Of a stretch of 64,000 nucleotides of DNA, positions 4,480-23,865 are shown one piece after another; the stretch's first letter is position 1; every line of letters begins with the position of its first letter. The translations under genes and the position numbers were made by a program. The notes beneath the pieces were generated by a model. That model had not been told where the DNA came from, did no database searches, and worked only from the letters and a program-made list of their open reading frames with translations. The DNA comes from a bacterium (GTDB lineage Bacteria; Desulfobacterota; Binatia; Binatales; Binataceae). Location: positions 13,986-77,985 of the forward strand of contig JADBKU010000018.1 of assembly GCA_014896235.1 (NCBI GenBank). Direction: 5' to 3'.

Positions 4480-4504
4480 TCCGTTCGGCCTGGACGCTGC
4501 GGCG

Positions 4505-4789: not shown

Positions 4790-4853
4790 CGCCTGATGTC
4801 CTTCGCAAGCCGAATTTTTTCAATCCCTCTTTGACGCCCCGGCTTCCGGCGCG

Positions 4854-10312: not shown

Positions 10313-10533
10313 CGCTCTATTCACTTAAACGAATGTTTTTTGCATTATGAAATTCAATTAGCCGCGTCGGCGTAAATCAAAAATCGTAAGAGCCGATCGA
10401 TATCTTCGAGCGTTCGCTCGGCGCGCTCCAGCGGCGCCAATCGGCGCCATTTGGCGCACCGGCCGTCCCGTTGATGACCGCGCGGCGTCCGCCCTTGACA
10501 TGCCGATGAGCCGCCGTCATAGCTTGACGCGCG

Positions 10534-11187
10534 ATGAAATCGTGGCGGCGATGCTTGATTATTGTGCCGGTGCTGGCGGGACTGGCCTCAGCGTTACTTC
10601 TCAGTTGCGGCGGAGGCGGAAGCAGCGGCATAACGCCCACGATCATCCCAACTTCGCTCTTTGCGGTCTTCGTCTGTTCGGGAGCGCCGCCCACGCCGAC
10701 ACCCACGCCAACGCCAACCAAGGGCGCAACCAAAACGCCAACGCCCACGCCGACGCCGCAATGTTCGCCGGTTACGTCCGCGTCGATCTGCATACCGAAT
10801 ACGAACAACGCGTTCTGCCAAACCGCGCCAACGCCGCCTACGTCGCTCCAGTTCAACGCGCAAGGCGCCTTTACCACCCATAATCCCAAAGAGCCGTACA
10901 AATACCGCGACGTTACGAACAGCTCGGCATGGAATCCGTTCCCCGAGAGCGGAGATATCACGGCGCTGCTGAGCTACGTAACGAATGGCGTGTTCGTCGC
11001 GCTGCAGCCGGTCGGTTCCGCGGGATGCGCCTGCTTTAACGTGACCGACGCCGGAATTCCCAGCCAAAGCGTGCTGGTTGGAGTTAACCAGGACGTATCG
11101 AACTGCGCGTTCACCTGTCCACAGATTCCCACGCCCACTCCGAAGGCGAGCGCTTCCGCCACGCAAGATTCGCGCTTTGCGCCTTAG
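10534..11187 (+). CDS. Lipoprotein with Pro-Thr-rich linkers and multiple Cys
   Basis: Signal peptide plus lipobox (LLLSC|GGGG). (PT)n tandem repeats at about 10681-10770. A mirror ORF on the minus strand (GVGVGV...) is a repeat artefact. Confidence 0.5.
   Translation: MKSWRRCLIIVPVLAGLASALLLSCGGGGSSGITPTIIPTSLFAVFVCSGAPPTPTPTPTPTKGATKTPTPTPTPQCSPVTSASICIPNTNNAFCQTAPTPPTSLQFNAQGAFTTHNPKEPYKYRDVTNSSAWNPFPESGDITALLSYVTNGVFVALQPVGSAGCACFNVTDAGIPSQSVLVGVNQDVSNCAFTCPQIPTPTPKASASATQDSRFAP
10681..10770 (+). repeat. Tandem CCNACN (Pro-Thr) coding microrepeat
   Basis: acgccgacacccacgccaacgccaacc...acgccaacgcccacgccgacgccg encodes PTPTPTPTPTK..TPTPTPTP. Confidence 0.6.
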
Positions 11188-11329
11188 ATTGAAGAGCGCA
11201 GGCATCGGAATCGCCGCCTTGGCCAGGTTTGTCATGTCCGCCGTCCGGCAAGGCAAAAAAATGGCGCAACCTGCGGATTTATTGTTAAAAACCGTTGGCG
11301 TCGCGATGCTGTTTCGATTTGACTCCACG

Positions 11330-11343
11330 TATCGCCGCCGATA
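11330..11343. promoter_or_regulatory. Inverted repeat TATCG-N4-CGATA, candidate TetR operator
   Basis: TATCGccgcCGATA lies immediately upstream of the tetR coding start. An imperfect longer palindrome CCGATAGTGTCGG overlaps it. Confidence 0.35.
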
Positions 11344-11364
11344 GTGTCGGCCATTGCGGCAACG

Positions 11365-12057
11365 ATGGAACGGCAAGCCAGGCGCGAGCAGGTATTGCAT
11401 CACGCGAAGCACATCTTCGCGCGCAAGGGATACCATCGCACCAACATCGCCGACATCATTTCGCGGGCGCGGATCGCGCGCGGAACCTTTTATCTCTATT
11501 TTCAGAACAAGCGCGACATTTTCGAAGAGTTGCTGTCGCAAACGCTGCGCGAGCTGCGCGAACGAATTCAGCGCCTGCGGGTTGGCCCCGGCCAGCCGAA
11601 TCCCGCCGAGCAATTGCGCGCCAATTTGCGGCGGGTGCTCGCTTTCGTGCTTGACGAACGCGAATTGACGGACATTCTGCTCAATCATTCGACCGGTTTC
11701 GATCGGGAGCTTGACGAGCAAATTGTGGATTTTTATGAGCGCGTCACGGATCAGATCCAGCGCTCGCTCGATCTCGGCATCGAAATGAACCTGGTGCGGA
11801 AATGCGACACGCGGGCGGTCGCCTATTGCATCCTGGGGGGCATCAAGGAAATCGTCGGCCAACTATCGCGCAACCAGCGCGACGACGTCGCCGTCCTGGC
11901 GGAGGAGATTCTTGATTTCGGGCTGCGCGGCGTCGCTCGTCCGGAGCTGCTCCAGACGGTTGTCAAGGAAGCGGCGGCCGGCGGTTGTCAGGCAAGCGCA
12001 GCCGGCGCGGAGACGACGGCGGAGGCGGGCCATTTTTTTCGTCCGAAATTAGACTGA
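11365..12057 (+). CDS. TetR/AcrR-family transcriptional regulator
   Basis: N-terminal HTH (ARKGYHRTNIADIISRARIARGTFYLYFQNKRDIF). An alternative GTG start at 11344 is possible. Confidence 0.8.
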   Translation: MERQARREQVLHHAKHIFARKGYHRTNIADIISRARIARGTFYLYFQNKRDIFEELLSQTLRELRERIQRLRVGPGQPNPAEQLRANLRRVLAFVLDERELTDILLNHSTGFDRELDEQIVDFYERVTDQIQRSLDLGIEMNLVRKCDTRAVAYCILGGIKEIVGQLSRNQRDDVAVLAEEILDFGLRGVARPELLQTVVKEAAAGGCQASAAGAETTAEAGHFFRPKLD

Positions 12058-12058
12058 C

Positions 12059-12883
12059 ATGTCAGTTCTAAAAGGCGACAGCCGAACGCATGGCCGGCGG
12101 CGCGCCGCCGCGACCGCCAACGGCAAAACGCATCCGCGCCGCGCGCTCGCGTTCTACGACGTTGACGGCACCTTAATCGATTTGAATCTGCTCCACTCGG
12201 CGCTTTTCGTTTTCGGCAATATCGGCGAATGGAGCGGCCGAATCGGCTATCTCGCCAGCTTCGCCGCGAGACTGCCGTCGCTTTATCTCGCTGAACGCCG
12301 CGATCGCTATCTGCTCAATATCGCGCTTTTCGAGGCCTTCAAGGGCGTCTCCCGCGATCGCCTGTTTTCGCTGGGCGAGGAATATTGCGATCGCGTGATG
12401 ATCGGCCATCTCTATCCGCGCGCCGCCGAACTTATTGAAGCGAACCGCGCGGCGGGGCTCGAACCGGTACTGGTGACAGGCTCGCCGGATTTTATCGTCG
12501 CGCCGTTCGCCGAGCGGCTGGGCATCAAGTCGTGGGCCGCGAACCGGCTGGTCTTCAGCCGCGGGCGAGCCACCGGACGCCTGCACGCGCCGGTGATGGC
12601 TGGCGACGCCAAAGCGGAATGGTGCGCGGAATATTGCGCGCGCCACGGAGTCGGACTTGCCGATTGCTGGGGCTACGCGGATTCCCATTACGACCTGCCG
12701 TTTCTGGCCGTGATGGGGCATCCGGTTGCGGTCAATCCCGACCGGCGCCTGGCGGCGATCGCGGCCGCGCGCCAATGGCCGTTGCTTCGTTTCGATAAGG
12801 GGGAACCGCGGCGCACGCTGGGCGGAATCGACCGCGCCGCGGTCGGCGAATGGCTTGAGAGGAAACTTAATGGCGCGGCCTGA
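12059..12883 (+). CDS. HAD-IB family hydrolase (phosphoserine phosphatase-like)
   Basis: FYDVDGTL motif I, VLVTGSPD motif II, GDAKAEW Lys region, YADSHYDLPFL and AVNPD C-terminal motifs typical of HAD-IB. 2 nt after the tetR stop. Confidence 0.7.
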   Translation: MSVLKGDSRTHGRRRAAATANGKTHPRRALAFYDVDGTLIDLNLLHSALFVFGNIGEWSGRIGYLASFAARLPSLYLAERRDRYLLNIALFEAFKGVSRDRLFSLGEEYCDRVMIGHLYPRAAELIEANRAAGLEPVLVTGSPDFIVAPFAERLGIKSWAANRLVFSRGRATGRLHAPVMAGDAKAEWCAEYCARHGVGLADCWGYADSHYDLPFLAVMGHPVAVNPDRRLAAIAAARQWPLLRFDKGEPRRTLGGIDRAAVGEWLERKLNGAA

Positions 12884-14510
12884 AGCGAAACTCAAGGAAC
12901 TTAAGCCGGCGGACCTGAAGCGCGAGGTGGGATCGCGGCGCGATCTAGTGGTGACGCTCAGCCGCCGTTCCGAGCCGCGGCTGATCGCCTACGGCGACGA
13001 GTTTCTGTACGAAAAGCTGCCGGCGGGAACGCGCGTCGTCTATCCCCCGCCGCCGCTCGACGCGCTGCCCGATCCGGACACCGCGATCCGCTACGCCCTG
13101 CTCCATCCGCTCAACGCCGATCCGCTGTTCGCGCAGCTCAATCCTAACATGCGCGTCACCATCGCGATCGACGACATCAGCCTGCCGCTGCCGCCGATGC
13201 GCCGTCCCGATATCCGCGAACGGCTGCTCAACCAGGTGCTGCAAACGCTGGCGGATTACGGCGTCGATGACGTTCATCTGATCGTCGCCACCGCGCTCCA
13301 TCGCCGGATGACCGAAGCGGAAATCCGCCGGATGGTGGGCGAGCGCGCTTTCAAGCAGTTCTGGCCGGAACGGCTCTACAACTTCGACGGCGAGGATCGG
13401 GCGAACCTCACGATGCTCGGCAAGACCGATCATGGCGAGGAGGTGTGGCTGTCGCGACGCGCGGCGGAATCGGATTTGCTGATTTATCTGAATATCAACC
13501 TGGTGCCGATGGACGGCGGGCATAAATCGGTCGCCGTCGGACTCGCGCCCTATCAAAGCCTGCGCCACCATCATAATCCCGCCACGCTTCGCGACAGCCA
13601 CTCATATATGGACCCGACGCGCTCGGCGCTGCATAGTTCGGCGAACCGGATGGGCCGGATAGTCAATCGCGAAGTGAATGTATTTTCGATCGAGACCGCC
13701 GTGAATACCCAGATGTACGGCGGGATGCTCGACTTCCTGCAAAAGAATGAAGATCGCTTCAGCGACTGGGATCGGATGCGGCTCAAGGGCTTCCGCTGGA
13801 CGCTCGGCGGAATGTCGAACGAATTGCGCCGCCAGGTGATGCATCAGTACGCGGCGCCATACGGGATGACGGGGGTGTGGGCGGGCGAGACCGAAACCGT
13901 CCATCGGCAGGCGCTGGCGCGGGTGTTCCAGCAGTACGCGGTTCCGGTAAAGGGACAATCCGACGTGCTGATCGTCGGCGTGCCCTATATCTGTCCCTAC
14001 AACGTCAATTCGATCATGAATCCCGTCCTCGTGCAGTGCACCGGGATGGGCTACCTGTTCAACATGTACCGCAACAAGCCGCTGGTGAAACCCGGCGGCA
14101 CGATGATTATCTGCCATCCGCTGCGCGACGAATTTCATCCTGAGCATCATCCGAGCTACATCGAATTTTTCCATCGATGCCTGGCCGAGACGACCGACTC
14201 GATCGAACTGGAAAAGCGGTTCGAAGCCGAGTTCGCGCGCAACCCGACCTATATCCACATGTACCGTTACGGACACGCCTATCACGGCGTGCATCCGTTC
14301 TACATGTGGTACTGGGGCGAGCCGGCGCGCCAGCACGTGGGGCGGGTGATCGCGGCCGGATGCCAGGAGCCGGAGGTCGCCGCCCGGCTGGGATGGGAGT
14401 CCGCGGACACGCTCGACGAGGCGATTGCGATGGCCACGTCCGAGCATGGACGGTCGGCGACAATTACCTATCTGCACTTGCCGCCGCTGGTGATCGCCGA
14501 TGTCGAATAG
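12870..14510 (+). CDS. LarA-family (lactate racemase-like, DUF2088 N-domain) protein
   Basis: 546 aa. Conserved blocks (VTIAIDDISLPLPP, LIVATALHRRMTEAE, MDGGHKSVAVGL, HHHNPATL) resemble nickel-pincer-dependent LarA-family racemase/epimerases. Overlaps neighbours by 14 and 11 nt. Confidence 0.55.
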   Translation: MARPEAKLKELKPADLKREVGSRRDLVVTLSRRSEPRLIAYGDEFLYEKLPAGTRVVYPPPPLDALPDPDTAIRYALLHPLNADPLFAQLNPNMRVTIAIDDISLPLPPMRRPDIRERLLNQVLQTLADYGVDDVHLIVATALHRRMTEAEIRRMVGERAFKQFWPERLYNFDGEDRANLTMLGKTDHGEEVWLSRRAAESDLLIYLNINLVPMDGGHKSVAVGLAPYQSLRHHHNPATLRDSHSYMDPTRSALHSSANRMGRIVNREVNVFSIETAVNTQMYGGMLDFLQKNEDRFSDWDRMRLKGFRWTLGGMSNELRRQVMHQYAAPYGMTGVWAGETETVHRQALARVFQQYAVPVKGQSDVLIVGVPYICPYNVNSIMNPVLVQCTGMGYLFNMYRNKPLVKPGGTMIICHPLRDEFHPEHHPSYIEFFHRCLAETTDSIELEKRFEAEFARNPTYIHMYRYGHAYHGVHPFYMWYWGEPARQHVGRVIAAGCQEPEVAARLGWESADTLDEAIAMATSEHGRSATITYLHLPPLVIADVE

Positions 14511-17500
14511 GAACGGAGCTTCGTCCGGCGCGGGTCCGCGCCGCAACGGCGCATCCGCGCGCGCGGCGAGCGGCGCGATGCCGCCGCTCGCGGAAATTTT
14601 CGCCGGGCGGGAATTGCTGATTACGGGCGCGACCGGTTTTCTCGGCAAAGTGCTGATCGCGATTCTCCTGCGGCATCATCCCGAGCTCGCCCGGCTGCAT
14701 CTGCTGATTCGCGGCGATCGCAAATCGAGCCATAACCGCTTCCGGCGCGAAATTCTCGAATCGCCCGCGCTCGGCCCCCTGCGCGAACATCTGGGCGCCA
14801 GCTTCGACCGCTATATCGAGGAGCGGGTCGCGATCGTGCCGGGCGACATCGCTGAACCGGGCCTGCTCAGCGACGAAGCGCCGGCGTTCGAGCGCGCGCA
14901 TATCGACGCGGTCATCCATTGCGCCGGCCTGGTGAATTTCGACGCGTCGCTGGCCAAGGCGCTCGAAGTCAACGCCATCGGCGTCGAAAACGTGGTCGCC
15001 TTCTGCTGCGCGCGCGGCGCCGCCCTGCTCCACGTTTCGACCTGTTACGCGGCGGGCGCCGCCGACGGCCATCGCTACGAGGACGACATCCCGATCGACT
15101 GGCGGCCGAACGGCCGCAAGGGCTTCGAGCTCGCGCGCGAAATGCGCGACGCGCGCGCGGAAATCGCGCGCGTCGAGGCGGAAGCTTCCGATCAAGCGCG
15201 AATGGCGCAGTTCCGGATGGCGGTCGAGGCGGAATCCGCCGACGCGGACGACGAGCGCGGCCACGGCGAAAGCGGCGAGCGCGCGATCGACGCGCGGCGC
15301 AAACAATGGATCGAAGAACGCTTGAAGGAAGTGGGCAAGCGGCGCGCGCGGATGTGGGGCTGGCCGAACACCTACAGCTACACCAAGAGCCTCGGCGAAC
15401 AGATTGCGCTCGCGGCGCGCGACCGCATCGCGGTGACGGTGGCGCGGCCGTCGGTGATCGAAAGCGCGCTCGCCGATCCGATTCCCGGATGGAACCAGGG
15501 CGTCAACACCAGCGCGCCCCTGACCTATCTGTCGGGACGCGGCTATCGCTTCTATCCAGCGCGGGGCGACCTGGTGCTCGACGTGATTCCGGTCGATCTC
15601 GCCGCGCACGCGATGGTTCCGATTCTCGGCGCGCTGTTGAGCGGCCGGCACAAGCCGATTTACCAGCTCTGCACGTCGGACGTGAATCCGCTGCCGATGC
15701 GCCGCCTGGTGGAATTGACCGCCCTCGGCAATCGGCGGGAGCATCGCCGGCAGGGCGGGCCGATGGGCAAGCTCGCGCGCCATCTGGAAGCCGTCATCGT
15801 TTCGCATCAGACCTACGAACTGGTCAGCCAGCGGCTGCCGGCGTTGCTGAAGAGCGCGGCGGCGGCGGCGGAATCGGTGATGGGCGATCGTCCGGCGGCG
15901 CGCAAAATCGCCGAGCGGGTCGAACGGCTGGTCGCGGACACGGAACTGGCGCGCTCGCTGGTCGAAGTCTATCTGCCGTATATCCAGGACCTGGTTTATA
16001 CCTTCCACGGGCGCAATATCCGCGAGCTGTACCGGGAACTTAAGCCGGCCGACGCGCGCGCCCATCCGTTCCATCCCGAGCGCATCGATTGGGCCGACTA
16101 CTGGATCAACGTCCATCTGCCGGGATTGCGCCGGCATATTTTCCCGCAGCTCGAATTGCATACGCGGGCGCGGCCGCGCGGCGGTTTCCGCTTCCGCACG
16201 CTGGTCGAGATGCTCGACCGGGCGGCCGAACGCTACGGCGCGCGGCCCGCGCTCGAGGCGCGCCTGCCGTCGGGCCAGCGCGCGGGCATGACCTATCGCG
16301 AACTCCGCGATCGCGCGTATCGGGCGGGCCTGATGCTGGCGTCGCGCGGGGTCGAACCGGGCGATCGCGTTCTGCTGATTGCGGAGAATTCGCCCGAGTG
16401 GGTGATCGCATACTTCGCGATAATTTACGCCGGCGCGATCGCCGTACCGCTGGACCATCTAATTGCGCCGGAAGAACTGGGGCCGATCGCGCGCATCGCC
16501 GAACCGGGCGCCGCGCTGGTTTCCGCCGGATGCGCGAAGCGGCTGGGCGCGGCGATCAGCGCGGCGGCGCCGGGAATCGCCGAGCTAGGACTGGACGAGC
16601 TGAATCGGCCGTTCATTCTCAGCGCGAAAGCGAAGACTCCGCCCGCGCTCGAGCGCAAATCGATCGCGTCGATCGTTTTCACCTCCGGCACCACCGGCGC
16701 GCCCAAGGGCGTGACGCTGACCCACGGCAACTTCACCGCCGAAATTGCGATGCTGGCGCGGGTGTTCACGCTCGGCGCCGACGACGTCGTGCTCTCGCTG
16801 CTGCCGCTGCACCATACCTTCGAGTTCACCTGCGGGATGCTGTTGCCGCTGGCGAGCGGCGCGCGGATCGTTTACCCGCAGGGCGTGGACGCCGCGAGCC
16901 TGTCTCGCACGCTGGCCGACGTGCGGCCGACCGCGCTGGTGGGAGTGCCGGCGCTGTGGGAGGCCGTGCACCGCCGCATCATGGACGAAGTCGAAGCGCG
17001 CGGGCCTTTCGCGCACGCCGCGTTCGAGCGGATGCGCGATCTGAATCGCCGGCTCGACGAAGATTACAACTTCAATCTCGGCACGCTGCTGTTCCGCCCG
17101 GCGCATGCCGCATTAGGCGGACGGCTCAAGCTCGCGGTGAGCGGCGGCGCGGCGCTGCCGCAACGGGTCGCGCGCTTTTTCAACGAAATCGGCATCCGGC
17201 TGCTTGAAGGCTACGGCCTGACCGAATCGGCGCCGGTGCTGAGCGTCGCGCGGCCCGACGAACCGCTGGTTCCAGGGTCGGTCGGCAAGCCGCTGCATAA
17301 CGTCGAGGTCAAATTGGCCATGGCCGAGGGCGGCGTCGGCGAGATTATCGCGCGTGGGCCGAACGTGATGGCGGGCTATTACCGCAATCCCGCGGCGACC
17401 GCCGAAGTGCTGCGCGACGGCTGGCTGCATACGGGCGATCTCGGCCGTTTCGACGAAGACGGACGGCTCTATATCGTCGGCCGGGCGAAGGACGTAATCG

Positions 17501-18909
17501 TCGATTCGGGCGGCAACAATATCTACATCGACGAGCTTGAAGAGGCGTACGGCCACTCGCCGTTCCTGAAAGAGCTGGCCGTGGTCGGATTGCGCGCCGG
17601 CCAGGGCGAGCAGGTCGCGGCGCTGGCCGTTCCGGCCTACGCGCGCGGCGAAAGCCGGCGCGCCGTCGAGGACAAGCTGCGCGCGCATTTCGAAAAAGTC
17701 GGCGCGGCGCTCAGTCCGCACAAGCGCATCCGCATCCTGCGCTTCACCGACGCCGAGCTGCCGCGCACGCGCACGCGCAAGGTGCGGCGCGCCGAGGTCG
17801 CGGCGATGCTGCGCCGGATGGTGGACAGCGACGAGCGCGAGCGCGGCGCCGTCAGCGCGGAGGTCGAACCGTGGCTGGCGCAGGCGCTGGCGCAGGTCGC
17901 GAGCGGCGGCGCGGAAATCACGCCGGCGACGCGGCTGATCGAAGACCTCGGATTGGATTCGCTGGCGCTGGCCGAACTGGCGGAGCATATCGCCGTCAAA
18001 TCGGGCCGCGAGCTCAGCGCGGAGGAGCTTTCGAACGTCGCGACCGTCGCGGAGTTGCAGCGAATCGCGGGCGAAGCCGGCAATCGCCCGAAGCTGCCGT
18101 CATATGCGCGCTTCGCGAAACCGTACACAATCGAACTGCCGGCGCCGTTGCGGCGGCTGGGCGAGGCGGCGCTCCGGCGATCATTCGACGCGGCGGTCGA
18201 CCGCTGGCTGAAGCCGCTCGTGATGGGCGCCGGGAATATTCCGGCGAACCGCAACGTGCTGGTCGTGGCGAACCATTCGAGCCATCTCGATTTCGCGCTC
18301 GTCGGCCACGCGTTGGGAGCGATGGGCCGCAACCTGGTGGTGCTCGCGGCCAAGGATTATTTCTTCAACACGCCGGCGCGGCGAACGCTCGCGGCGAACT
18401 TCACGCGGCTGATCCCGTTCGACCGCGAACGCGCACAGCTCGAATCGCTCGACGAGGCGCTGGCGGAACTGGCGGCAGGCCGCAGCGTGCTGATGTTTCC
18501 CGAAGGCACGCGCTCGCCCGACGGCCTGATCCACGAGTTCAAGAGCGGCGCGGGCTACCTTGCGTTGCATAGCGGATGCGACGTGCTGCCGATCCGAATC
18601 GACGGCACGCATGAGGTGCTCGGCAAGGGCCAGCTTCTGCCGCGGCGCCATCCGGTGGAAATTCGCATCGGGCGGCCGATCGGAGCGGAGGAACTGCGCG
18701 GCCTCGCCCGCGACGGCGAAAGCGCGGGCGCGTATCGCAAGCTCGCCGAGCGGATGCGCGACGCAGTCGTCGGCCTCGGCGCGCGCCCGGCGAAGCGCAT
18801 CAAACCTTTGGCGGCGATCGCCGGGCCTTCCAGCGACGCGGCGGAAATAGCCGCCGCGCCCGGCGAACGCGCCCGCGGCCGTCGTCCGGCGCGCCACGCG
18901 AAAGGTTGA
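14500..18909 (+). CDS. Four-domain lipid megaenzyme: fatty acyl-CoA/ACP reductase (NAD-binding, male-sterility type), AMP-dependent acyl ligase, acyl carrier protein, 1-acylglycerol-3-phosphate acyltransferase (ElbD-like)
   Basis: aa about 35-500: LLITGATGFLGKVL plus YSYTK (YxxxK), the thioester-reductase/FAR fold. aa about 560-1080: AMP-binding (FTSGTTGAPKG, GYGLTES, YRTGDLGRFDEDGRLYIVGRAKD). aa about 1110-1190: PP-binding (DLGLDSLALAEL). aa about 1230-1400: LPLAT (NHSSHLD giving HX4D, FPEGTRS). 1469 aa. Confidence 0.8.
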   Translation: MSNRNGASSGAGPRRNGASARAASGAMPPLAEIFAGRELLITGATGFLGKVLIAILLRHHPELARLHLLIRGDRKSSHNRFRREILESPALGPLREHLGASFDRYIEERVAIVPGDIAEPGLLSDEAPAFERAHIDAVIHCAGLVNFDASLAKALEVNAIGVENVVAFCCARGAALLHVSTCYAAGAADGHRYEDDIPIDWRPNGRKGFELAREMRDARAEIARVEAEASDQARMAQFRMAVEAESADADDERGHGESGERAIDARRKQWIEERLKEVGKRRARMWGWPNTYSYTKSLGEQIALAARDRIAVTVARPSVIESALADPIPGWNQGVNTSAPLTYLSGRGYRFYPARGDLVLDVIPVDLAAHAMVPILGALLSGRHKPIYQLCTSDVNPLPMRRLVELTALGNRREHRRQGGPMGKLARHLEAVIVSHQTYELVSQRLPALLKSAAAAAESVMGDRPAARKIAERVERLVADTELARSLVEVYLPYIQDLVYTFHGRNIRELYRELKPADARAHPFHPERIDWADYWINVHLPGLRRHIFPQLELHTRARPRGGFRFRTLVEMLDRAAERYGARPALEARLPSGQRAGMTYRELRDRAYRAGLMLASRGVEPGDRVLLIAENSPEWVIAYFAIIYAGAIAVPLDHLIAPEELGPIARIAEPGAALVSAGCAKRLGAAISAAAPGIAELGLDELNRPFILSAKAKTPPALERKSIASIVFTSGTTGAPKGVTLTHGNFTAEIAMLARVFTLGADDVVLSLLPLHHTFEFTCGMLLPLASGARIVYPQGVDAASLSRTLADVRPTALVGVPALWEAVHRRIMDEVEARGPFAHAAFERMRDLNRRLDEDYNFNLGTLLFRPAHAALGGRLKLAVSGGAALPQRVARFFNEIGIRLLEGYGLTESAPVLSVARPDEPLVPGSVGKPLHNVEVKLAMAEGGVGEIIARGPNVMAGYYRNPAATAEVLRDGWLHTGDLGRFDEDGRLYIVGRAKDVIVDSGGNNIYIDELEEAYGHSPFLKELAVVGLRAGQGEQVAALAVPAYARGESRRAVEDKLRAHFEKVGAALSPHKRIRILRFTDAELPRTRTRKVRRAEVAAMLRRMVDSDERERGAVSAEVEPWLAQALAQVASGGAEITPATRLIEDLGLDSLALAELAEHIAVKSGRELSAEELSNVATVAELQRIAGEAGNRPKLPSYARFAKPYTIELPAPLRRLGEAALRRSFDAAVDRWLKPLVMGAGNIPANRNVLVVANHSSHLDFALVGHALGAMGRNLVVLAAKDYFFNTPARRTLAANFTRLIPFDRERAQLESLDEALAELAAGRSVLMFPEGTRSPDGLIHEFKSGAGYLALHSGCDVLPIRIDGTHEVLGKGQLLPRRHPVEIRIGRPIGAEELRGLARDGESAGAYRKLAERMRDAVVGLGARPAKRIKPLAAIAGPSSDAAEIAAAPGERARGRRPARHAKG

Positions 18910-18926
18910 GCGGCGCACGGCGCATC

Positions 18927-19781
18927 ATGAACATGTCCCGCGCAATCGCGCTCGCAGTGGCCGCCGTGCTGGCCGCATCGATCGCGCCGCCAGCGCATGC
19001 GTGGGATTCGCGAACGCATCGCCTGATCACGCGGCTGGCGGTCGACGCGCTGCCCGCGGGATCGCCGCGCGCGACGCTTGCGGCCAACGAAGCGCGACTG
19101 CAGGAGGCGTCGGTCGCGCCGGACGAAGTCTTGCGTCCGCTCTATGGCAAGTCCGAAGCGATCAAGCACTATCTGGATCTCGAATACTACGGCGCCGATC
19201 CCTTCGCGGCGCTCAATCCCGATATTCATGTGATGGAACGGGAGTACGGATGGCGCACGCTGGAGCAATCGGGCACGCTGCCGTGGACGATCGAGGAAGA
19301 GTCGGCCGATCTCGCGAACGCATGGCGCGGCGGCGATTGCGCGAATGCGATCCAGACCGCCGGCTACCTGGCGCATTACGTCGGCGACGCGACCCAGCCG
19401 CTCCATTCGACCACCCACTTCGACGGCTACGCGCAAGATCGCGGCGTCCATCGGCGCTTTGAGAGCGCGGTCGATTACAACGTCTGGCGCATCGAGCAGA
19501 TGGCTCGCCCGGAAGTTCAGCTCGCGCCGATCGTGTCGCCGTGGGACGCGGCTATCGCGGAACTCCGCGAGAGCCATCCGCTGGTACAGGCGGTAATCAA
19601 CGCCGACCGTACGGCGCGCGCGGAAACCGGACTTCGGCGCGGGGCCTATTTCGATCGCGTGTTGATGGCCGAGGAGGCGCCGATGGTCGCGCGCCAGATA
19701 GCGATCGCCGCTTCAACGCTCGGTTCGATCTGGCGATATGAATGGACGCAGGCCGGCCAACCGTCTGCATGCGCGGAATAG
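18927..19781 (+). CDS. Secreted S1/P1-nuclease / zinc phospholipase C superfamily hydrolase
   Basis: Signal peptide (MNMSRAIALAVAAVLAASIAPPAHA). Mature N-terminus WDSRTH carries the Zn-ligand W1/H6. HYVGDATQPLH closely matches the P1 nuclease HFIGDMTQPLH Zn-binding signature. The upstream gene's stop overlaps the alternative TTG start at 18906. Confidence 0.6.
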   Translation: MNMSRAIALAVAAVLAASIAPPAHAWDSRTHRLITRLAVDALPAGSPRATLAANEARLQEASVAPDEVLRPLYGKSEAIKHYLDLEYYGADPFAALNPDIHVMEREYGWRTLEQSGTLPWTIEEESADLANAWRGGDCANAIQTAGYLAHYVGDATQPLHSTTHFDGYAQDRGVHRRFESAVDYNVWRIEQMARPEVQLAPIVSPWDAAIAELRESHPLVQAVINADRTARAETGLRRGAYFDRVLMAEEAPMVARQIAIAASTLGSIWRYEWTQAGQPSACAE

Positions 19782-19888
19782 TCGCGCGCTTCTGGACCGG
19801 CCGGGCGACGGTTAGAATATCAGTGGACGGATAGCGCGGTTGAGAACGTAAATCGCGCCGCCGCATCGGATTGGAAATTTTGGCGCTG

Positions 19889-20422
19889 ATGGACTGGTGG
19901 ACCCGGAAAGACGACGATCGGCCGCGGCCGACCCGCGGCGATATTCGCCCGTCGGTGAGCGAAATCACCGGCTATCTGCTGGTCGGCGAATACCCGCGCG
20001 TCGCCGATATCGAATGGCTCAAGCGCGAGCATCGCATAACCGCGATCCACAATCTTCAGGACGACGAGGATTTGCGCATCAACGCGCTCGATATCGCCGC
20101 GCTCGAAGCGGCCGCCGCCCGGCACGGAATCGCGTATACGCGCACGCCCATCCATGACGGCAGTTCCGACGATGTCGCGCGCAGGCTGGAAGCGGCGCTG
20201 GCGGACTTGCACGCGCTGGTCGCCGGCGAGCGGCGCGTATATCTGCACTGCAACGCCGGCTTGAATCGCGCGCCGACGCTCGCGATCGCATACTTGCGAG
20301 CCTATCGCGGAATGTCGCTCGAAGAGGCGCTGGCGCTGGTCAAAGCGCGGCGCGCATGCGGGCCGTTCATGACCGTGCTCGAAAATCATTTCGGTCCGCG
20401 CCACCTCAAACCCTCAGCGTAG
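19889..20422 (+). CDS. Dual-specificity (Cys-based) protein/lipid phosphatase, CX5R type
   Basis: VYLHCNAGLNRAPT matches the HC(X)5R(S/T) P-loop of DSP/PTP-fold phosphatases. 177 aa. Confidence 0.7.
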   Translation: MDWWTRKDDDRPRPTRGDIRPSVSEITGYLLVGEYPRVADIEWLKREHRITAIHNLQDDEDLRINALDIAALEAAAARHGIAYTRTPIHDGSSDDVARRLEAALADLHALVAGERRVYLHCNAGLNRAPTLAIAYLRAYRGMSLEEALALVKARRACGPFMTVLENHFGPRHLKPSA

Positions 20423-20440
20423 CCGGCCGCGGCGCCGCAG

Positions 20441-21166
20441 ATGGCGAGTCAACGGATTCTCCGCGGATGCGCATGGGGCGTTCATCTACTGACCGCGTCG
20501 GGCGCGGCGGCGGGGTTGATAGCGATCGACCGCACGACGCGCGCGGACTGGCGCGGCGCGTTTATCGCGATGGCGGTCGCGGTCGCGATCGATTCTTTCG
20601 ACGGGCCGCTGGCCCGCGCGCTTCGCGTACGCGAACGCATCCCCGTCTTCGACGGCGCGACGCTCGACAATATCGTGGACTATCTCAATTACGTCGCGGT
20701 TCCCGCCTTCCTGATGCTGCGGGCGAAGCTGCTGCCGGCGGGAAACGTCGGAACGATACTCGCCGCGTTCGTGATGATCGCGAGCGCATACGGCTTCAGC
20801 CGGACCGACGCGAAGACCGAGGACAACTACTTCCGCGGCTTCCCGTCTTACTGGAACCTGGTCGCGCTCTATATTTTCTGCCTCGGATTTTCACGCACGG
20901 CCAACGGCGTCATCGTCGGCGCGCTGGCGCTGATGGTGTTCGTTCCAATCAAATATATTTATCCGAATCGCACCGAGCTGATGCGTCCGCTGACCCTCAC
21001 GCTCGCCGCGATATGGGGCGTCGCCACCGTCGCGATGCTGCCGATGCTGCCGAAACATAACGATCTTCTGCTTTACACCTCGCTCGCCTTCGTCGTTTAC
21101 TATTTCGCGATGTCATTCGCCCTTCACGTTCATCCGGCGCGCGTCGCCGCTCGCCGTCCGCGTTAG
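20441..21166 (+). CDS. pcs: CDP-alcohol phosphatidyltransferase, phosphatidylcholine synthase (Pcs)-type
   Basis: DSFDGPLARALRVRERIPVFDGATLDNIVD fits DG(X)2AR(X)12G(X)3D(X)3D, the extended-spacing variant reported for Pcs (the classical CDP-OH motif has X8). 241 aa with multiple TM helices, the same length as rhizobial Pcs. Confidence 0.55.
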   Translation: MASQRILRGCAWGVHLLTASGAAAGLIAIDRTTRADWRGAFIAMAVAVAIDSFDGPLARALRVRERIPVFDGATLDNIVDYLNYVAVPAFLMLRAKLLPAGNVGTILAAFVMIASAYGFSRTDAKTEDNYFRGFPSYWNLVALYIFCLGFSRTANGVIVGALALMVFVPIKYIYPNRTELMRPLTLTLAAIWGVATVAMLPMLPKHNDLLLYTSLAFVVYYFAMSFALHVHPARVAARRPR

Positions 21167-21172
21167 GCCGCG

Positions 21173-22129
21173 ATGTCCGCCACGATCGCCGCCGCGGCAT
21201 GGCTTGAAATCGTCGAAGGACCCGCGCCGATCCTGCTGATTGCGCCGCACGGCGGACGCGCCGGCGCCGCCGCGCGCGCCGCGCTCCATCCGAAAGTGAA
21301 CGACCTCGAGACCGCCGCGATCGCGCGCGAGCTGGCGGACAGGCTCGGCGCCTGCGCGCTGATCAATTCGGCGATGGACCGCAACGAACTGGATTGCAAC
21401 CGGCTCGGGCAATTGGCGGCGCGTGCGCCATGGATGCTCGAATTGATCGCCAGCCGGGTCGAACACATGGCGCGCCGGCGCGGGCGCGCGATCGTGATGC
21501 TGATTCACGGCTGGAACGTGATCGAGCCGCGAGTGGATATCGGCCTCGGGCTGCGCGATCACGGCGCGCACCTCCGTCCGCCCGCCGGAGCCCACGTCAG
21601 CGCGAGCGACGATTTCATCAGCGGTCCTGTATCCGCGATAACCGAGCGGCTTGACCGCGCGGGCATCGCGGCGACCTTCGGGATGCGCTATCCGGGCGGC
21701 GCGCGTCAGAACCTGTTGCAGGCGTTCACGCCGCGCCATCGCGCAAGCGACATTCCGGCCGTTCGGCGGCTCGCCGCGCTCGCGGCCGACGGCGCGGTCG
21801 ACGCGATTCAACTGGAAATGTCGGTCGCGGTGCGGATGCCCGGACCGTTGCGCGCGAAGGGAATCGCGGCGATCGCCGAATCGTTTCGCTTTGCTCATGG
21901 CGATGACCGCGGCTCCCGCCACTGGATCGAAAACATCGAACGGAACTTACGCCGCGCGCGTCGTAATCCGCGAAGCGCCGCCGCGACCCGCGCAGGCCGT
22001 CGCGCCGTCCGCCGTCGCGCCGACCCGGTATGGCGTGGAATTCTTCGACGCCGCCGCAAACGTTGGCGGAATCGCCAGCTTCGATCTCGGCGCGGGCGGC
22101 GCCGGCGGACGGATCATGATTCTGTTTGA
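21173..22129 (+). CDS. N-formylglutamate amidohydrolase (FGase/HutG-like) fold protein; 3' end unresolved
   Basis: LLIAPHGGR matches the FGase family N-terminal motif. After about aa 245 (FRFAHGDDRG) the frame turns Arg-rich with no stop until 22129, while an overlapping frame carries plausible protein sequence from 21897. This points to a frameshift, a fusion, or an unusual overlap. Confidence 0.4.
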   Translation: MSATIAAAAWLEIVEGPAPILLIAPHGGRAGAAARAALHPKVNDLETAAIARELADRLGACALINSAMDRNELDCNRLGQLAARAPWMLELIASRVEHMARRRGRAIVMLIHGWNVIEPRVDIGLGLRDHGAHLRPPAGAHVSASDDFISGPVSAITERLDRAGIAATFGMRYPGGARQNLLQAFTPRHRASDIPAVRRLAALAADGAVDAIQLEMSVAVRMPGPLRAKGIAAIAESFRFAHGDDRGSRHWIENIERNLRRARRNPRSAAATRAGRRAVRRRADPVWRGILRRRRKRWRNRQLRSRRGRRRRTDHDSV

Positions 22130-22916
22130 TCGATGCCGCGCTGCGCTCTTTACCGCCGAAGGACGCCCGCATCATGACGGCGAAACGTTTTCGCTTGGAC
22201 CGCTGCGATTTGCCTGCGACGGCCGCGCCGGCAGCGTGACGTTCGCCGGTCCTGCGATAGTCGTGAACGACGGCGGCGCCTATCTAAGCGTGGAGCACGC
22301 GCTGGCCGGCGGCGCGCTCGATCCCGCGATGCGACTCCGCGCCGCGCTCGCGTTCGAAGAAGACGCGGGGACGCCGGACCTCGTCGCGCCGCCCCCGCGC
22401 TTTGGACGGCTGCAAGGCGCGATTGAAATCGCTGGACGCCGGTTGAATCTGGACGCCGTCGCGCGCGTCGGCGTGTCTGTAACCGGTCTCGGCGCGGGGC
22501 GCTTCGAAATCCGGCGCACCATCTGGGCGCGCTTTGCTTCCGGGAGTCGAATCGCCGCGCTCGAAGTATGCGAAACCGCCGAGCGGAATCAGTCAATTCA
22601 TCGTGATGCGCGAATCCTGACCGAAAACGGATGGCGAACGGCGGAAGTCGGCGCGATCGAACTGACGACGCGCGAGCCCGCCGCGCCGCCCGACCGCATC
22701 GCGGCTTCGATCATCGCGCCGCGCGGCGCGGAGGCGGAGCTGAACGGCGCGGTCAGGAGCTTCATGTCGCTCTCGCGCCCCGGCGCGGACGGCGTACGCA
22801 TCCATACAACGCTCGGCTTCGCCGAGTTCAGTCTGGGCGGAGAACGCGGAGCCGGGATGTTCGAATATTCGCGGGTCGTCGGCCGGCCCGACGCCGCCAT
22901 GGACGAAATTCGATAA
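21897..22916 (+). CDS. Hypothetical protein (Gly/Ala-rich, no recognised domain)
   Basis: Protein-like composition from MAMTAAPATG onward (340 aa). The part of the 21651 ORF upstream of that is Arg-rich artefact. Last gene of the plus-strand operon. Confidence 0.4.
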   Translation: MAMTAAPATGSKTSNGTYAARVVIREAPPRPAQAVAPSAVAPTRYGVEFFDAAANVGGIASFDLGAGGAGGRIMILFDRCRAALFTAEGRPHHDGETFSLGPLRFACDGRAGSVTFAGPAIVVNDGGAYLSVEHALAGGALDPAMRLRAALAFEEDAGTPDLVAPPPRFGRLQGAIEIAGRRLNLDAVARVGVSVTGLGAGRFEIRRTIWARFASGSRIAALEVCETAERNQSIHRDARILTENGWRTAEVGAIELTTREPAAPPDRIAASIIAPRGAEAELNGAVRSFMSLSRPGADGVRIHTTLGFAEFSLGGERGAGMFEYSRVVGRPDAAMDEIR

Positions 22917-22923
22917 GTCGATT

Positions 22924-23865
22924 TCAGCCGGCTTCTTCCGGCGCCGATGAGAGTTGATGCGGTTCGGCCGCGGCGGCCTTGAGCCGCAACGCCACGAGCC
23001 GCGCGAGTTCGTGAAAGTTCTTCGCCAGCGGCGATTCCGGATACGCGCGGATAAAAATCACGCCGCGGTCGCAGCTTTCCGCGAGCCGCGAATCGAACGG
23101 CAGGCGCGCCAGCGTCGCAACCCCGTCCGCGGCCGCCACGGCGGCGAGATCGCCATGCGGCAGCAACGGCCGCACCGAGTGGCATCCCTCGCAGCTGAAG
23201 CCGACCATGTTCTCGACCAGTCCGAGCACGGGGACGGAGCAAAGCCGCGCGATTTCGATCGCGCCGCGCGTCGCGCGCACCGCGAAATCCGACGGCTGCG
23301 TCACTATGATCGCGCCTGCCAACGGCGCGATCCGCGCCAGACGGAAAAGCTGTTCAAGCCCCGGAGCGAGATCGATCAACAGCACGTCCAGCGCGCCAAA
23401 ATTGGTCAGCCCGAGCAATCGGCGCAGCGCGTCATCGTAATCGAGTTCGGCGAGCGCGGACCCGTTGCGGCTCACGGCTTCATGCGCGGCATCGCCGTCA
23501 AGAAAGCTGATAGGGGGCGGCTCGCCGCCGGGCAATAGGCCGCTGGCCGCGATTCGCAGTCCCAGCGGGCCCGCGATCGGCTCGATCGCCTCGCCGGCGA
23601 AGACTCGCCGCGGCGCCTGCAAGCCCAGCATCGCCAGCACGTTCGGCGAATTCAGGTCGGCGTCGAGGATTCCCACCTTTTGGCCGGCCAGCGCCAGCGC
23701 CGCCGCCAGATTGACTGTGACGGCGCTTTTGCCCACGCCGCCCTTCGCGCTCGCGATCGCGACCGCCGCGCGCACGCCGCTCAGGCCAGCACCCGGCGCG
23801 GCCGTTCCGCGCGCGCCGCGGGAATCGCATTCAGCGTCAGCCCGGCGTTCCCTGAAGATCCTCAT
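22924..23865 (-). CDS. apbC: Mrp/NBP35-family Fe-S cluster carrier ATPase
   Basis: Deviant Walker A (SAKGGVGKS), CEGC (CxxC) cluster-binding motif, 313 aa. Confidence 0.8.
   Translation of the reverse strand: MRIFRERRADAECDSRGARGTAAPGAGLSGVRAAVAIASAKGGVGKSAVTVNLAAALALAGQKVGILDADLNSPNVLAMLGLQAPRRVFAGEAIEPIAGPLGLRIAASGLLPGGEPPPISFLDGDAAHEAVSRNGSALAELDYDDALRRLLGLTNFGALDVLLIDLAPGLEQLFRLARIAPLAGAIIVTQPSDFAVRATRGAIEIARLCSVPVLGLVENMVGFSCEGCHSVRPLLPHGDLAAVAAADGVATLARLPFDSRLAESCDRGVIFIRAYPESPLAKNFHELARLVALRLKAAAAEPHQLSSAPEEAG

Follow-up and report, generated by a model that had tools for sequence, protein, structure and literature searches.

A probable elb-type ether-lipid operon with a putative phosphatidylcholine head-group module in an uncultured Binataceae bacterium

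Sequence analysis of the window, the whole 64,000-nucleotide stretch under study, indicates that the locus at 11365-22916 (forward strand) in this uncultured Binataceae bacterium (Binatota) is probably an elb-type ether-lipid operon joined to a probable phosphatidylcholine head-group module. Pfam and NCBIfam profile searches with the proteins of this locus confirmed their families and upheld the assignments of an earlier note on this DNA (TetR, HAD-IB, LarA-like, megaenzyme, PLC/P1-fold, CX5R, Pcs-type, and FGase-fold). The gene order is tetR, elbB, elbC, elbD, PLC-like, DSP, Pcs-like, and an FGase/AttH fusion, all on the forward strand. The corrected count is eight genes, tetR first, behind one promoter, rather than nine, and the ORFs at 21173-22129 and 21651-22916 are halves of one gene in all relatives. 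Over 15 genomes, assembled independently in different studies, show the same order at 45-95% protein identity, and because it recurs in this way the arrangement is far beyond chance. This conservation across Binataceae loci bears out the earlier guess of synteny in the Binatota. The earlier reading of the locus as one lipid system with a TetR gene at its head is also supported.

The HAD, LarA-like, and four-domain megaenzyme genes are identified by their profiles and order as elbB-elbC-elbD, a known bacterial ether-lipid gene set originally reported from Myxococcus. Their features are as follows.

12059-12883, forward strand: elbB-like HAD-IB phosphatase, 274 aa (PF12710 107 bits; TIGR01490 110.6, cutoff 98.3)
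12870-14510, forward strand: elbC-like LarA-superfamily protein, 546 aa (Lar_N; NCBIfam LarAH14/15/16 846.8 bits, cutoff 740)
13299-13301 (H144), 13524-13526 (K219), and 13569-13574 (H234/H235): putative nickel-pincer-nucleotide (NPN) site of ElbC
13497-13499, forward strand: ElbC N210, at the position of the second catalytic His of LarA
14500-18909, forward strand: elbD-like four-domain enzyme, 1469 aa, with the full ElbD architecture (Pfam)
14620-15615 (NAD_binding_4) and 15922-16143 (Sterile), forward strand: ElbD FAR domain (Pfam)
16213-17382 (AMP-binding) and 17533-17781 (C-domain), forward strand: ElbD acyl-AMP ligase (Pfam)
17872-18057, forward strand: ElbD ACP (PP-binding; Pfam)
18220-18600, forward strand: ElbD PlsC-type acyltransferase (Pfam)

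The earlier statement that no operon of this composition had been described is wrong for these three genes, which match elbB-elbC-elbD of the Myxococcus xanthus elbA-elbE operon (MXAN_1531-1527, MIBiG BGC0000871; Lorenzen et al. 2014, as presented in PMC9131029 and PMC13012113). The Corallococcus terminator locus has the order epimerase-HAD-LarAH-ElbD-epimerase, exactly the published elbA-E order (PMC9131029, PMC13012113). The M. xanthus and Binataceae operons share the elbB (HAD)-elbC-elbD order, overlapping junctions, and an identical ElbD architecture (FAR, acyl-CoA-synthetase-like, ACP, and AGPAT-like). Identity to the Myxococcaceae orthologues is 38% for the HAD protein, 52% for ElbC (the Corallococcus gene at the elbC position), and 34-47% by domain for ElbD (Corallococcus ElbD). 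The Binataceae operon differs by lacking the elbA and elbE SDR genes, by adding tetR in front, and by carrying the PLC-like, DSP, Pcs-like, and FGase/AttH fusion genes behind. elbE is absent from every Binataceae locus examined, so the pathway may differ or depend on an unlinked reductase; elbE inactivation lowers ether lipids in M. xanthus (PMC9131029).

Sponge symbionts (Poribacteria and Acidobacteriota) offer a second comparison. The available text of a preprint reports elb-like clusters beside CDP-alcohol phosphatidyltransferases in some clades, and these families resemble the Binataceae operon in having variable elbB+elbD cores with lipid genes nearby (bioRxiv 10.64898/2026.06.23.733905). 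Unlike the Binataceae operon, their neighbors are G3P acyltransferases, DAG kinases, FAS genes, and sulfatases, and that portion of the preprint mentions neither DUF2088 nor lactate racemase nor Binatota and describes no Pcs/DSP/PLC/FGase-fusion set. No mention of ether lipids in Binatota was found in the literature searched.

The ElbD translation contains the motifs TGATGFLGK, YSYTK, FTSGTTGAPKG, DSL, and NHSSHLD, and its architecture is common to the best 120 of 951 matches (66-95% identity, many from named Binataceae). Ligase activation of a long-chain fatty acid and ACP loading were shown for M. xanthus ElbD, and its FAR and acyltransferase activities could not be demonstrated (PMC9131029). 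The intact motifs suggest that the Binataceae ligase would likewise activate a long-chain fatty acid and load the ACP. The N-terminal FAR domain would convert the acyl thioester to an aldehyde or alcohol, and the PlsC-type domain would acylate a glycerol-phosphate backbone. ElbC and ElbB may process the glycerol-phosphate-derived partner to give a 1-O-alkyl glycerolipid. An ether glycerolipid core made by a reductase plus acyltransferase megaenzyme, as first proposed, stands as the best reading. The scheme resembles the eukaryotic/myxobacterial FAR-GNPAT-AGPS pathway, in which fatty-acyl reduction and a glycerol-phosphate/DHAP acyltransferase lead to an alkyl ether glycerolipid, except that the operon contains no AGPS homologue. 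Following CDP activation by a housekeeping CdsA, the Pcs-type transferase would attach choline to form ether-linked or ordinary phosphatidylcholine.

The genes behind elbD comprise the head-group module and the fusion.

18927-19781, forward strand: PLC-like, secreted Zn-dependent PLC/P1-nuclease-fold hydrolase, 284 aa (Zn_dep_PLPC 40.7, cutoff 26.8)
18927-19001, forward strand: PLC-like signal peptide, an N-terminal hydrophobic segment ending AHA|W, with the predicted mature N-terminus Trp at 19002
19889-20422, forward strand: DSP, CX5R dual-specificity-type phosphatase, 177 aa (DSPc 61.8 bits, cutoff 33.5)
20246-20269, forward strand: HCNAGLNR motif of the DSP
20441-21166, forward strand: Pcs-type CDP-alcohol phosphatidyltransferase, membrane protein, 241 aa (CDP-OH_P_transf 27.4 bits, cutoff 22)
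20591-20680, forward strand: Pcs-like motif D51x2DGx2ARx12Gx3Dx3D80
21173-21907, forward strand: fusion N-half, FGase-like (Zn-amidohydrolase/carboxypeptidase-fold) domain, the ORF continuing out of frame to 22129
21905-21909, forward strand: frameshift site in the inter-domain linker, a 2-nt gap against the intact orthologue of locus L002 (MAFFT)
21909-22916, forward strand: fusion C-half, DUF7064/AttH-CrtC-like β-barrel domain

The Pcs-type enzyme probably points to a choline head group, in agreement with the earlier proposal. Phosphatidylcholine synthase models are by far its best matches: five from NCBIfam score 141-206 bits, all under their cutoffs of 300-440, whereas the Pss model reaches only 36 and PIP synthase 16. 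The protein has multiple hydrophobic segments, its homologues carry the JGI label 'phosphatidylcholine synthase', and the 12-residue spacer of its motif is typical of Pcs (PMC3972451). SD4 Acidobacteria with elb genes are described, in the available part of the preprint, as having alkyl ether lipids and phosphocholine head groups (bioRxiv 10.64898/2026.06.23.733905).

The PLC-like protein aligns with the metal-ligand stretch of Bacillus cereus PC-PLC (HY.GD..QP.H ... H...E), and its S1-P1_nuclease score of 25.7 is under the 29.5 cutoff. The junctions 12057/12059, 12883/12870, and 14510/14500 are as given before, the last two being present in the gene calls of relatives as well, but the fourth (18909/18906) rests on a TTG codon. 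Because orthologues use ATG and not this TTG, the PLC-like start was moved to ATG 18927, the most likely start, which leaves a 17-nt gap after elbD instead of a 4-nt overlap. For the DSP, gene calls make ATG 19889 the most likely start, and the protein contains no hydrophobic segment. Among proteins of solved structure it is closest to the plant glucan phosphatases LSF2 (E 2.5e-19) and SEX4 (E 5e-13), rather than to known lipid or phosphocholine phosphatases. In Pseudomonas aeruginosa, phosphocholine is released by the secreted phospholipase C PlcH and dephosphorylated to choline by PchP, after which Pcs joins the choline to CDP-diacylglycerol; PlcH belongs to a phosphoesterase family and PchP to the HAD family, and the genes are not known to be clustered together. 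The same logic would apply if the Zn-PLC-like enzyme, acting in the periplasm, and the CX5R phosphatase release choline from external phosphatidylcholine or phosphocholine; alternatively, they may trim head groups. The Binataceae proteins belong to other families than PlcH and PchP, and the DSP, having no signal peptide, would act in the cytoplasm, unlike the P. aeruginosa arrangement.

These DSP properties bear on an alternative in which the product is a new polar ether lipid and not phosphatidylcholine. The Pcs-like enzyme would couple CDP-(alkyl)acylglycerol with an alcohol that is phosphorylated or N-acylated, for instance a sugar phosphate or polyol phosphate, and the DSP would then dephosphorylate the product, as happens with PgsA/Pgp or PIP synthase/PIP phosphatase. 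The FGase domain would de-acylate the head group, with the lipid tails bound in the AttH-like barrel. The kinship of the DSP to carbohydrate-phosphate phosphatases, the Pcs-like scores under every equivalog cutoff, and the combination of an amidohydrolase fold with a hydrophobic-ligand barrel fit this scheme, as does the occurrence of DSP, Pcs-like, and fusion together behind elbD in 15/17 Binataceae loci with PLC-like optional. The margin of the Pcs models over Pss and PIP synthase and the Pcs-signature spacer argue against it, and so does the phosphatase itself: choline is not phosphorylated, so Pcs needs none. We regard this alternative as unlikely and favor the choline head group, with the fusion acting as a possible lipid-binding hydrolase.

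The fusion is one gene of ~580 aa, split in the window by a 2-nt deletion near 21907; all relatives encode one protein of 568-596 aa, with intact versions in P0306 (93% identity, 581 aa), L002, L003, and L084. Translation of the C-half could resume at ATG 21894 or ATG 21900. The family was found only in the elb-operon context among the homologues examined, and the most distant homologue (34% identity) also lies in a DSP-Pcs-fusion arrangement. Frameshifts are also numerous in some related loci from long-read MAGs.

The upstream region contains the following features.

11319-11347, forward strand: σ70-type promoter with -35 TTGACT (11319-11324), a 17-nt spacer, and -10 TAGTGT (11342-11347)
11330-11343, no strand assigned: palindrome TATCG-CCGC-CGATA in the promoter spacer, overlapping the -10
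11365-12057, forward strand: tetR, TetR-family regulator, 230 aa (TetR_N 53.7 bits, TetR_C_24 35 bits)

The tetR start is most likely ATG 11365 by gene calls (the mechanical GTG start is 11344), and the promoter lies 46 nt upstream of this ATG. A strict consensus scan does not call this promoter because its -10 is weak; in 19/20 orthologous Binataceae loci, the pattern [TG]TGAC[AT]-N16-18-TAnnnT precedes the tetR ATG by 46-59 nt. The palindrome, earlier proposed as a candidate operator, exists as the single TATCG-N4-CGATA in the window, and its position would suit a repressor. It is not conserved, reading TACCG in L002, a 95%-identical relative, with no equivalent in the other orthologous loci, and a 5+5 palindrome is not improbable by chance in a ~180-nt intergenic region; the operator assignment is not supported. 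Wherever a Binataceae locus extends far enough upstream, tetR is the first cluster gene; the non-Binatia elb loci compared lack it. The best NCBIfam match of TetR is Bacillus-type FadR (65 bits, far under the cutoff of 200), and this weakly FadR-like regulator probably senses an acyl or lipid ligand. Intergenic gaps within the operon range from -14 to 107 nt, no promoter-type motif precedes the DSP gene in 16 loci, and terminator-like sites within the operon show no excess over shuffled sequence. The tight spacing, the one conserved promoter, and the lack of conserved internal promoters or excess terminators make transcription of the eight genes as one unit plausible. The next gene downstream is convergent.

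Locus comparison shows how the parts are distributed. All 16 Binataceae loci compared keep the HAD-LarAH-ElbD order, and their stops and starts overlap. The HAD gene adjoins the LarA-like gene in all 16 and in 50/55 other loci (66/71 overall, at least five phyla), and ElbD is adjacent in 34/51 loci outside Binataceae, which include Myxococcota, Acidobacteriota (among them Pyrinomonadaceae), Gemmatimonadales (Gemmatimonadota), and others. PLC-like is present in ~9/18 Binataceae loci, and two loci consist of tetR-elbBCD only; because of these absences, the add-on is judged modular and not obligatory. A flanking ParA-DksA-MiaB-like-LolA-FtsK block is conserved too, and part of the synteny thus reflects a stable chromosome region.

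In another alternative, the genes behind elbD are ordinary membrane-phospholipid housekeeping genes that happen to share this stable neighborhood, and the core yields neutral compounds (fatty alcohols, wax esters, or storage/signaling alkylglycerols) or supplies just fatty aldehyde. Alcohol-forming reductases typically combine a FAR1-like domain with a Sterile C-domain. In M. xanthus, the neutral ether lipid TG-1 is produced, and the sole product linked to ElbD in vivo is an aldehyde (PMC9131029). The tight spacing with only one conserved promoter, the occurrence of the fusion family nowhere outside this operon among the homologues examined, and the two loci without the add-on, which show that it travels as a unit joined to elbD, make this explanation improbable.

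ElbC is assigned to the LarA-type nickel-pincer enzymes, with a putative cofactor site and a single catalytic histidine. All 80 orthologues compared retain H144, K219, H234, and H235, among which are the tethering Lys, the Ni ligand His, and the first catalytic His. The second catalytic histidine is missing in all 80, and N210 is conserved in 77/80. Among solved structures, the closest are single-histidine NPN enzymes in the holo form (PMC12611868), matched by profile at E 1.6e-66 (9q2u/9q3j). These proteins, LarA-Bw and LarA-Sp (PDB 9q3j, 9q2u, 9q3k), together with LarAH groups 14/15, are ~500-aa two-domain LarA homologues that share with ElbC the NPN-tether Lys, the Ni-ligand His, the first catalytic His, and the loss of the second; the relationship is distant, the loops align only partly, and the ElbC loop before the Lys is 4 residues shorter. 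LarA-Bw and LarA-Sp adjoin glycolytic genes, whereas ElbC lies between the HAD phosphatase and ElbD. No larB, larC, or larE cofactor-synthesis genes were found in the window or in the neighborhoods of relatives viewed. ElbC could be a common epimerase of hydroxy acids or sugar acids in the manner of LarAH15/GntE, placed here incidentally and without a lipid role: one enzyme numbered LarAH15, from Phytophthora, is a D-gluconate 2-epimerase (PMC11770544), and a role in carbohydrate metabolism was suggested by those who solved the single-histidine structures (PMC12611868). This is very unlikely given that the gene overlaps elbB and elbD, that the HAD-LarAH adjacency spans phyla, that racemization needs the absent histidine, and that LarAH14 was inactive on all hydroxy acids tried. 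The adjacency of unrelated genes by chance, or an assembly artifact, as the frameshifts in the last gene and in related MAGs might suggest, is refuted by the synteny in independent assemblies.

The elb core was already known; what is new in Binataceae is the absence of elbE and the gain of a local regulator and a probable head-group module. ElbC is a conserved, unexplained candidate for the ether-forming enzyme of the Elb route, and its apparent orthology to LarA/nickel-pincer enzymes with one catalytic histidine is an under-noticed clue to the ether-forming step.

Every plausible gene between 11365 and 22916 lies on the + strand (GC in the window is about 0.58–0.70), and an identical 7.7-kb contig is present in run SRR24392716. 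The family calls of the earlier note, which saw here a nine-gene lipid operon, were upheld nearly one for one by Pfam and NCBIfam scans. Its remark that an operon of such composition had not been described was wrong for genes 2–4, which are elbB–elbC–elbD. The observation was largely right and the ether-lipid inference good; this is the known elb cluster in a lineage-specific form rather than a system of an undescribed kind.

Features of the operon
11319–11324 and 11342–11347, +, promoter (TTGACT and TAGTGT), conserved at 19 of 20 loci
11365 (start), +, tetR
12059–12883, +, elbB-like gene for a HAD phosphatase
12870–14510, +, elbC-like gene for a LarA homologue (LarAH)
14500–18909, +, gene for the four-domain ElbD-like megaenzyme
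18927–19781, +, gene for a secreted protein of the Zn-PLC/P1-nuclease fold (PLC-like)
19889–20422, +, gene for a CX5R phosphatase (DSP)
20441–21166, +, Pcs-like gene
21173–22916, +, gene for a fusion of an FGase-like and an AttH/CrtC-like half, frameshifted near 21907

The elbA–E genes of M. xanthus encode an SDR (ElbA), a HAD-like phosphohydrolase (ElbB), a protein of unassigned function (ElbC), ElbD with FAR1-like, acyl-CoA-synthetase, ACP and AGPAT-like domains, and a second SDR (ElbE) (PMC9131029; locus tags in PMC13012113). Disruption of elbD strongly reduces the alkyl and vinyl ether lipids of this organism (PMC9131029). The 1469-aa ElbD-like protein contains NAD_binding_4 plus Sterile, AMP-binding, PP-binding and Acyltransferase domains, all four above the Pfam cutoffs and in the published order, and its catalytic motifs are intact in the reductase (TGATGFLGK, YSYTK), ligase (FTSGTTGAPKG), carrier (DSL) and acyltransferase (NHSSHLD). 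A search at E ≤ 1e-50 finds 951 homologues of the megaenzyme, of which the best 120 are 66–95% identical; the source names given among these 120 are 'Candidatus Binataceae', 'Candidatus Binatus' and 'Deltaproteobacteria' MAGs, which marks the host as an uncultured member of the Binatota. The HAD-IB protein scores above the TIGR01490 cutoff, and the HAD, LarAH and ElbD genes follow one another directly with overlaps of 14 and 11 nt.

A 10-sequence alignment of LarA-like representatives was used to scan one genome per species. The scan located 80 loci, 17 in Binataceae and 63 elsewhere, and the loci were mapped by tblastn with the window proteins. The 63 non-Binataceae loci include Myxococcota (Corallococcus terminator, Archangium, Anaeromyxobacter, Polyangiaceae), Acidobacteriota (Pyrinomonadaceae, Blastocatellia, Terriglobia, Bryobacterales), Gemmatimonadales and Planctomycetota. 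The HAD gene adjoins the LarAH gene at 16/16 Binataceae loci and 50/55 others, and the ElbD gene adjoins it at 16/16 and 34/51, respectively. Neighbourhood conservation, put forward earlier as a check, is seen in this map, with HAD–LarAH–ElbD recurring across phyla. The order epimerase–HAD–LarAH–ElbD–epimerase in Corallococcus terminator is the exact published elbA–E layout, and the LarA-like gene of the window (52% identity) is therefore the elbC orthologue. Outside Binataceae the HAD–LarAH linkage is tighter than that between LarAH and ElbD, and ElbD is absent within 10 kb at some of these loci, for example a Planctomycetota locus (L022) and an Archangium locus (L028). Published elbD genes are sometimes unlinked from elbB and elbC.

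By sequence, ElbC is clearly a LarA-type enzyme with a single catalytic histidine, and this holds in five phyla. The protein matches PF09861 at 125 bits and the NCBIfam model for LarAH14/15/16 (NF052592) at 846.8 bits against a cutoff of 740. His144, Lys219 (in GGHKS) and His234/His235 are invariant in all 80 ElbC orthologues. When profiles are aligned to solved LarA homologues, His144 falls on the first catalytic histidine (LarA His108), Lys219 on the tethering lysine, which forms a thioamide with the nickel-pincer nucleotide (GGxK of Mar2 and LarA-like structures), and His234/His235 on the nickel-ligating histidine. A second catalytic histidine (LarA His174) is missing: the ElbC loop 205–215 contains no histidine, and 77 of the 80 orthologues have Asn210 there, in a position whose equivalence to the His174 column depends on the alignment because the ElbC loop is shorter. 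This absence is a feature of the published single-histidine subgroup (PMC12611868), and two single-histidine LarA homologues, 9q2u and 9q3j, are the closest solved structures. One of them was solved with the cofactor bound, the authors suggest a role in carbohydrate metabolism for these homologues, and the counterpart of His174 is missing from LarAH groups 14 and 15 (PMC12611868). LarAH14 was inactive on every substrate tested. The literature searched, including PMC12611868, contained nothing that ties nickel-pincer enzymes to ether lipids or myxobacteria, and neither larB, larC, larE nor another Lar cofactor-synthesis family was found among the Pfam-scanned window ORFs or the annotated neighbourhoods. 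Two ElbC-like cluster representatives (P0121 and P0137; 69% and 44% identical to the window ElbC) have arginine at the His144 position and lack Lys219, and are thus ElbC relatives whose cofactor site is degenerate.

The count of nine genes was reduced by one, as the two terminal ORFs, which have scant or zero Pfam signal, are a single gene. One gene of 568–596 aa stands in their place in the 95% and 68% identical relatives (L002, L003) and in the most distant homologue (L084). ORF 21173–22129 corresponds to residues 1–243 of the intact protein (93% identity) and ORF 21651–22916 to residues 245–579 (81% identity). DNA alignment places a deficit of 2 nt in the window near 21907, in the interdomain linker, and an intact version of the fusion (P0306) is 93% identical. 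The frameshift may be an assembly error or a recent mutation, and ATG 21894 and ATG 21900 are possible restart codons for the C-terminal half. Operon ORFs are broken at several loci from long-read MAGs (L018, L019, L021, L085), so frameshifts in this operon are often assembly artefacts, which bears on the one near 21907. A 388-aa 'stand-alone' C-terminal half (P0313) does not speak for a natural split, its source being a heavily frameshifted long-read contig. Gene calls in relatives place the starts of tetR, the PLC-like gene and DSP at ATG 11365, ATG 18927 and ATG 19889. Three of the junctions reported earlier stand (12057/12059, 12883/12870 and 14510/14500); the fourth, 18909/18906, becomes a 17-nt gap with the PLC-like start at 18927.

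The proposed TetR operator did not survive comparison. The palindrome TATCGCCGCCGATA at 11330–11343 occurs once in the window, a post hoc test, and a 5+5 palindrome within a spacer of ~180 nt is not unusual. It is conserved in 0 of 20 orthologous upstream regions, and even L002 reads TACCG. The conserved element here is the promoter: 19/20 loci keep [TG]TGAC[AT]-N16-18-TAnnnT, 46–59 nt 5′ of the tetR ATG. The palindrome falls in the promoter spacer and overlaps the −10 element, a sensible location for a repressor, but comparison lends it no support as an operator. A strict promoter scan of 10900–23400 returned no calls, and terminator-like sites in the same interval are no more numerous than in shuffled sequence. 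The conserved promoter motif does not precede the DSP gene in any of 16 loci, and the downstream gene is convergent and lies 7 nt past the last stop. These features, together with the tight spacing and the single conserved promoter, support but do not prove one transcription unit.

Binataceae loci differ from the others in what they lack and in what they add. ElbE is absent at E ≤ 1e-20 from all of them, and in most other loci it lies directly after ElbD. The sole SDR of the window (3331–4479) was rejected as a displaced elbE, as its 27–32% identity to ElbE reflects generic similarity only. For the ElbE proteins of L066 (16068–17096) and L031 (16270–17367), the best matches, all below cutoff, are the models for HpnA, the sterol demethylase SdmB and the 3-oxo reductase OleD, which suggests a keto-reductase-type role. 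In L031 (Pyrinomonadaceae, SD4 Acidobacteria), elbB–C–D–E is followed by SAM-dependent methyltransferases at 18364–19008 (−) and 19503–20213 (+); their matches are to generic families, and phospholipid N-methyltransferase activity is not claimed. The tblastn map places tetR and the PLC-like, DSP, Pcs-like and fusion genes in Binataceae loci only. DSP–Pcs-like–fusion is found in 15 of the 17 Binataceae loci with enough downstream sequence and the PLC-like gene in about 9/18, while L005 and L013 have tetR–elbBCD alone and then other genes. The downstream ParA–DksA–MiaB-like–LolA–FtsK block on the opposite strand is also conserved, and the locus is therefore a stable part of the Binataceae chromosome. 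The literature searched contained nothing on Binatota and ether lipids together, and ether lipids go unmentioned in the main paper on Binatota genomes. A preprint describes elb-like clusters of sponge symbionts flanked by CDP-alcohol phosphatidyltransferases (bioRxiv 10.64898/2026.06.23.733905).

The Pcs-like protein contains D51x2DGx2ARx12Gx3Dx3D80, an exact fit to DX2DGX2ARX12GX3DX3D, and a 12-residue spacer in this CDP-alcohol phosphotransferase motif is the Pcs form (PMC3972451). Its best models are five NCBIfam phosphatidylcholine synthase equivalogs (141–206 bits), none of whose cutoffs (300–440) it reaches. Homologues are named phosphatidylcholine synthase by JGI and hypothetical or family-level by NCBI. 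A simple hydropathy scan shows a polytopic protein with at least four strong hydrophobic segments and weaker N-terminal ones. The PLC-like protein matches PF00882 at 40.7 bits against 26.8, and its HY.GD..QP.H and H...E motifs align to the metal-ligand stretch of B. cereus PC-PLC. Its signal peptide ends at AHA/W, so the mature N-terminus is tryptophan, as in this metalloenzyme fold; the substrate may be lipid or nucleic acid. DSP is soluble and matches DSPc at 61.8 bits against 33.5; its closest relatives are the plant glucan phosphatases LSF2 and SEX4, and HCNAGLNR aligns with the LSF2 active site. The AlphaFold model of the fusion, built on 22 homologues, has a pLDDT of 83 and a pTM of 0.84. 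The C-terminal half is an AttH/CrtC-like β-barrel by fold match and matches Pfam DUF7064; the FGase family Pfam cutoff (PF05013) is not reached. PDB sequences gave nothing useful, and the fold assignments come from the predicted structure only. A large protein search returned just 25 matches to the fusion, all unnamed or 'hypothetical'; even the most distant of them, 34% identical, lies in an operon of these same eight genes.

Other features of the window
581–4479 (+) and 4854–5897 (−), 732-aa ORF with C-terminal HAD_2, MobA-like NTP transferase, GalE/GDP-mannose-dehydratase-like epimerase and luciferase-like monooxygenase
5930–9880, −, AsmA/DUF748/YhdP-like protein of 1316 aa, just upstream of the operon
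10534–11187 (+) and 10377–10961 (−), overlapping opposite-strand ORFs between the AsmA-like gene and the tetR promoter, no Pfam match
33473–38017, −, Lhr-type helicase
41134–44715, +, hybrid PAS histidine kinase/response regulator with Hpt domain
52045–54444, +, TonB-dependent receptor
56297–59447, +, PmbA/TldD pair

The genes at 581–5897 look like sugar-nucleotide metabolism, and no tie to the operon was shown. Proteins of the AsmA/DUF748/YhdP family have been linked to the transport of lipids to the outer membrane; this gene is present in L002 (95%) and not in L003. Annotation pipelines differ over 10377–11187, calling 217 aa on the + strand in L002 and 166 aa on the − strand in L001. The 64-kb window contains no tRNA genes.

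For M. xanthus ElbD, activity as ligase and as carrier has been demonstrated, and ether-lipid formation requires the protein. Binataceae ElbD would do the same, with the FAR domain reducing the tethered acyl group, and would acylate a glycerol-phosphate backbone. No chemistry for the ether bond has yet been assigned in the Elb route, which works without AGPS (PMC9131029). ElbD is always accompanied by a phosphatase and by a nickel enzyme predicted to shuttle hydride and to be unable to racemise. As a hypothesis, these two proteins, the HAD phosphatase and ElbC, would be the obvious candidates to act at the C2-hydroxyl/phosphate end of the glycerol partner. The DSP–Pcs-like–fusion addition is best read as a head-group module in which the Pcs-like enzyme would attach choline to a CDP-activated lipid. 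Supplying choline, or trimming head groups, may be the task of the optional periplasmic PLC-like protein together with the phosphatase. The PlcH–PchP–Pcs route of Pseudomonas follows the same logic of choline supply. SD4 Acidobacteria have elb genes as well as alkyl ether lipids with phosphocholine head groups, which makes a link between ether lipids and choline plausible. One rival reading is that the phosphatase and the amidohydrolase directly build a different head group.

A more novel proposal is doubtful at present. The single-histidine nickel-pincer ElbC would be the missing ether-forming step, or a redox-neutral 'borrowed hydride' step at the C2 hydroxyl of a glycerol-phosphate-linked intermediate; Binataceae would not need ElbE, the product would be ether-linked phosphatidylcholine, and the fusion would be a new lipid-modifying enzyme. 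If this were true, the FGase/AttH fusion could work on the ether or the head group as, for instance, a hydratase or lyase, aerobic bacterial ether-lipid synthesis would be nickel-dependent, and LarA chemistry would reach past hydroxy-acid racemisation.

What makes the system valuable is that elbE is missing, that head-group genes are attached, among them one for a fusion protein found in no other setting, and that ElbC could be identified. With an intact cofactor site, one catalytic histidine and an almost constant HAD-phosphatase partner, ElbC can be put to the test as a concrete candidate for the missing step. Having no elbE but head-group genes of its own, the Binataceae version amounts to a natural experiment that asks which parts are essential. 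Ether and choline lipids are predicted for a widespread soil phylum that is uncultured, and this prediction matters for the reading of environmental alkyl-glycerol and brGDGT-type biomarkers.
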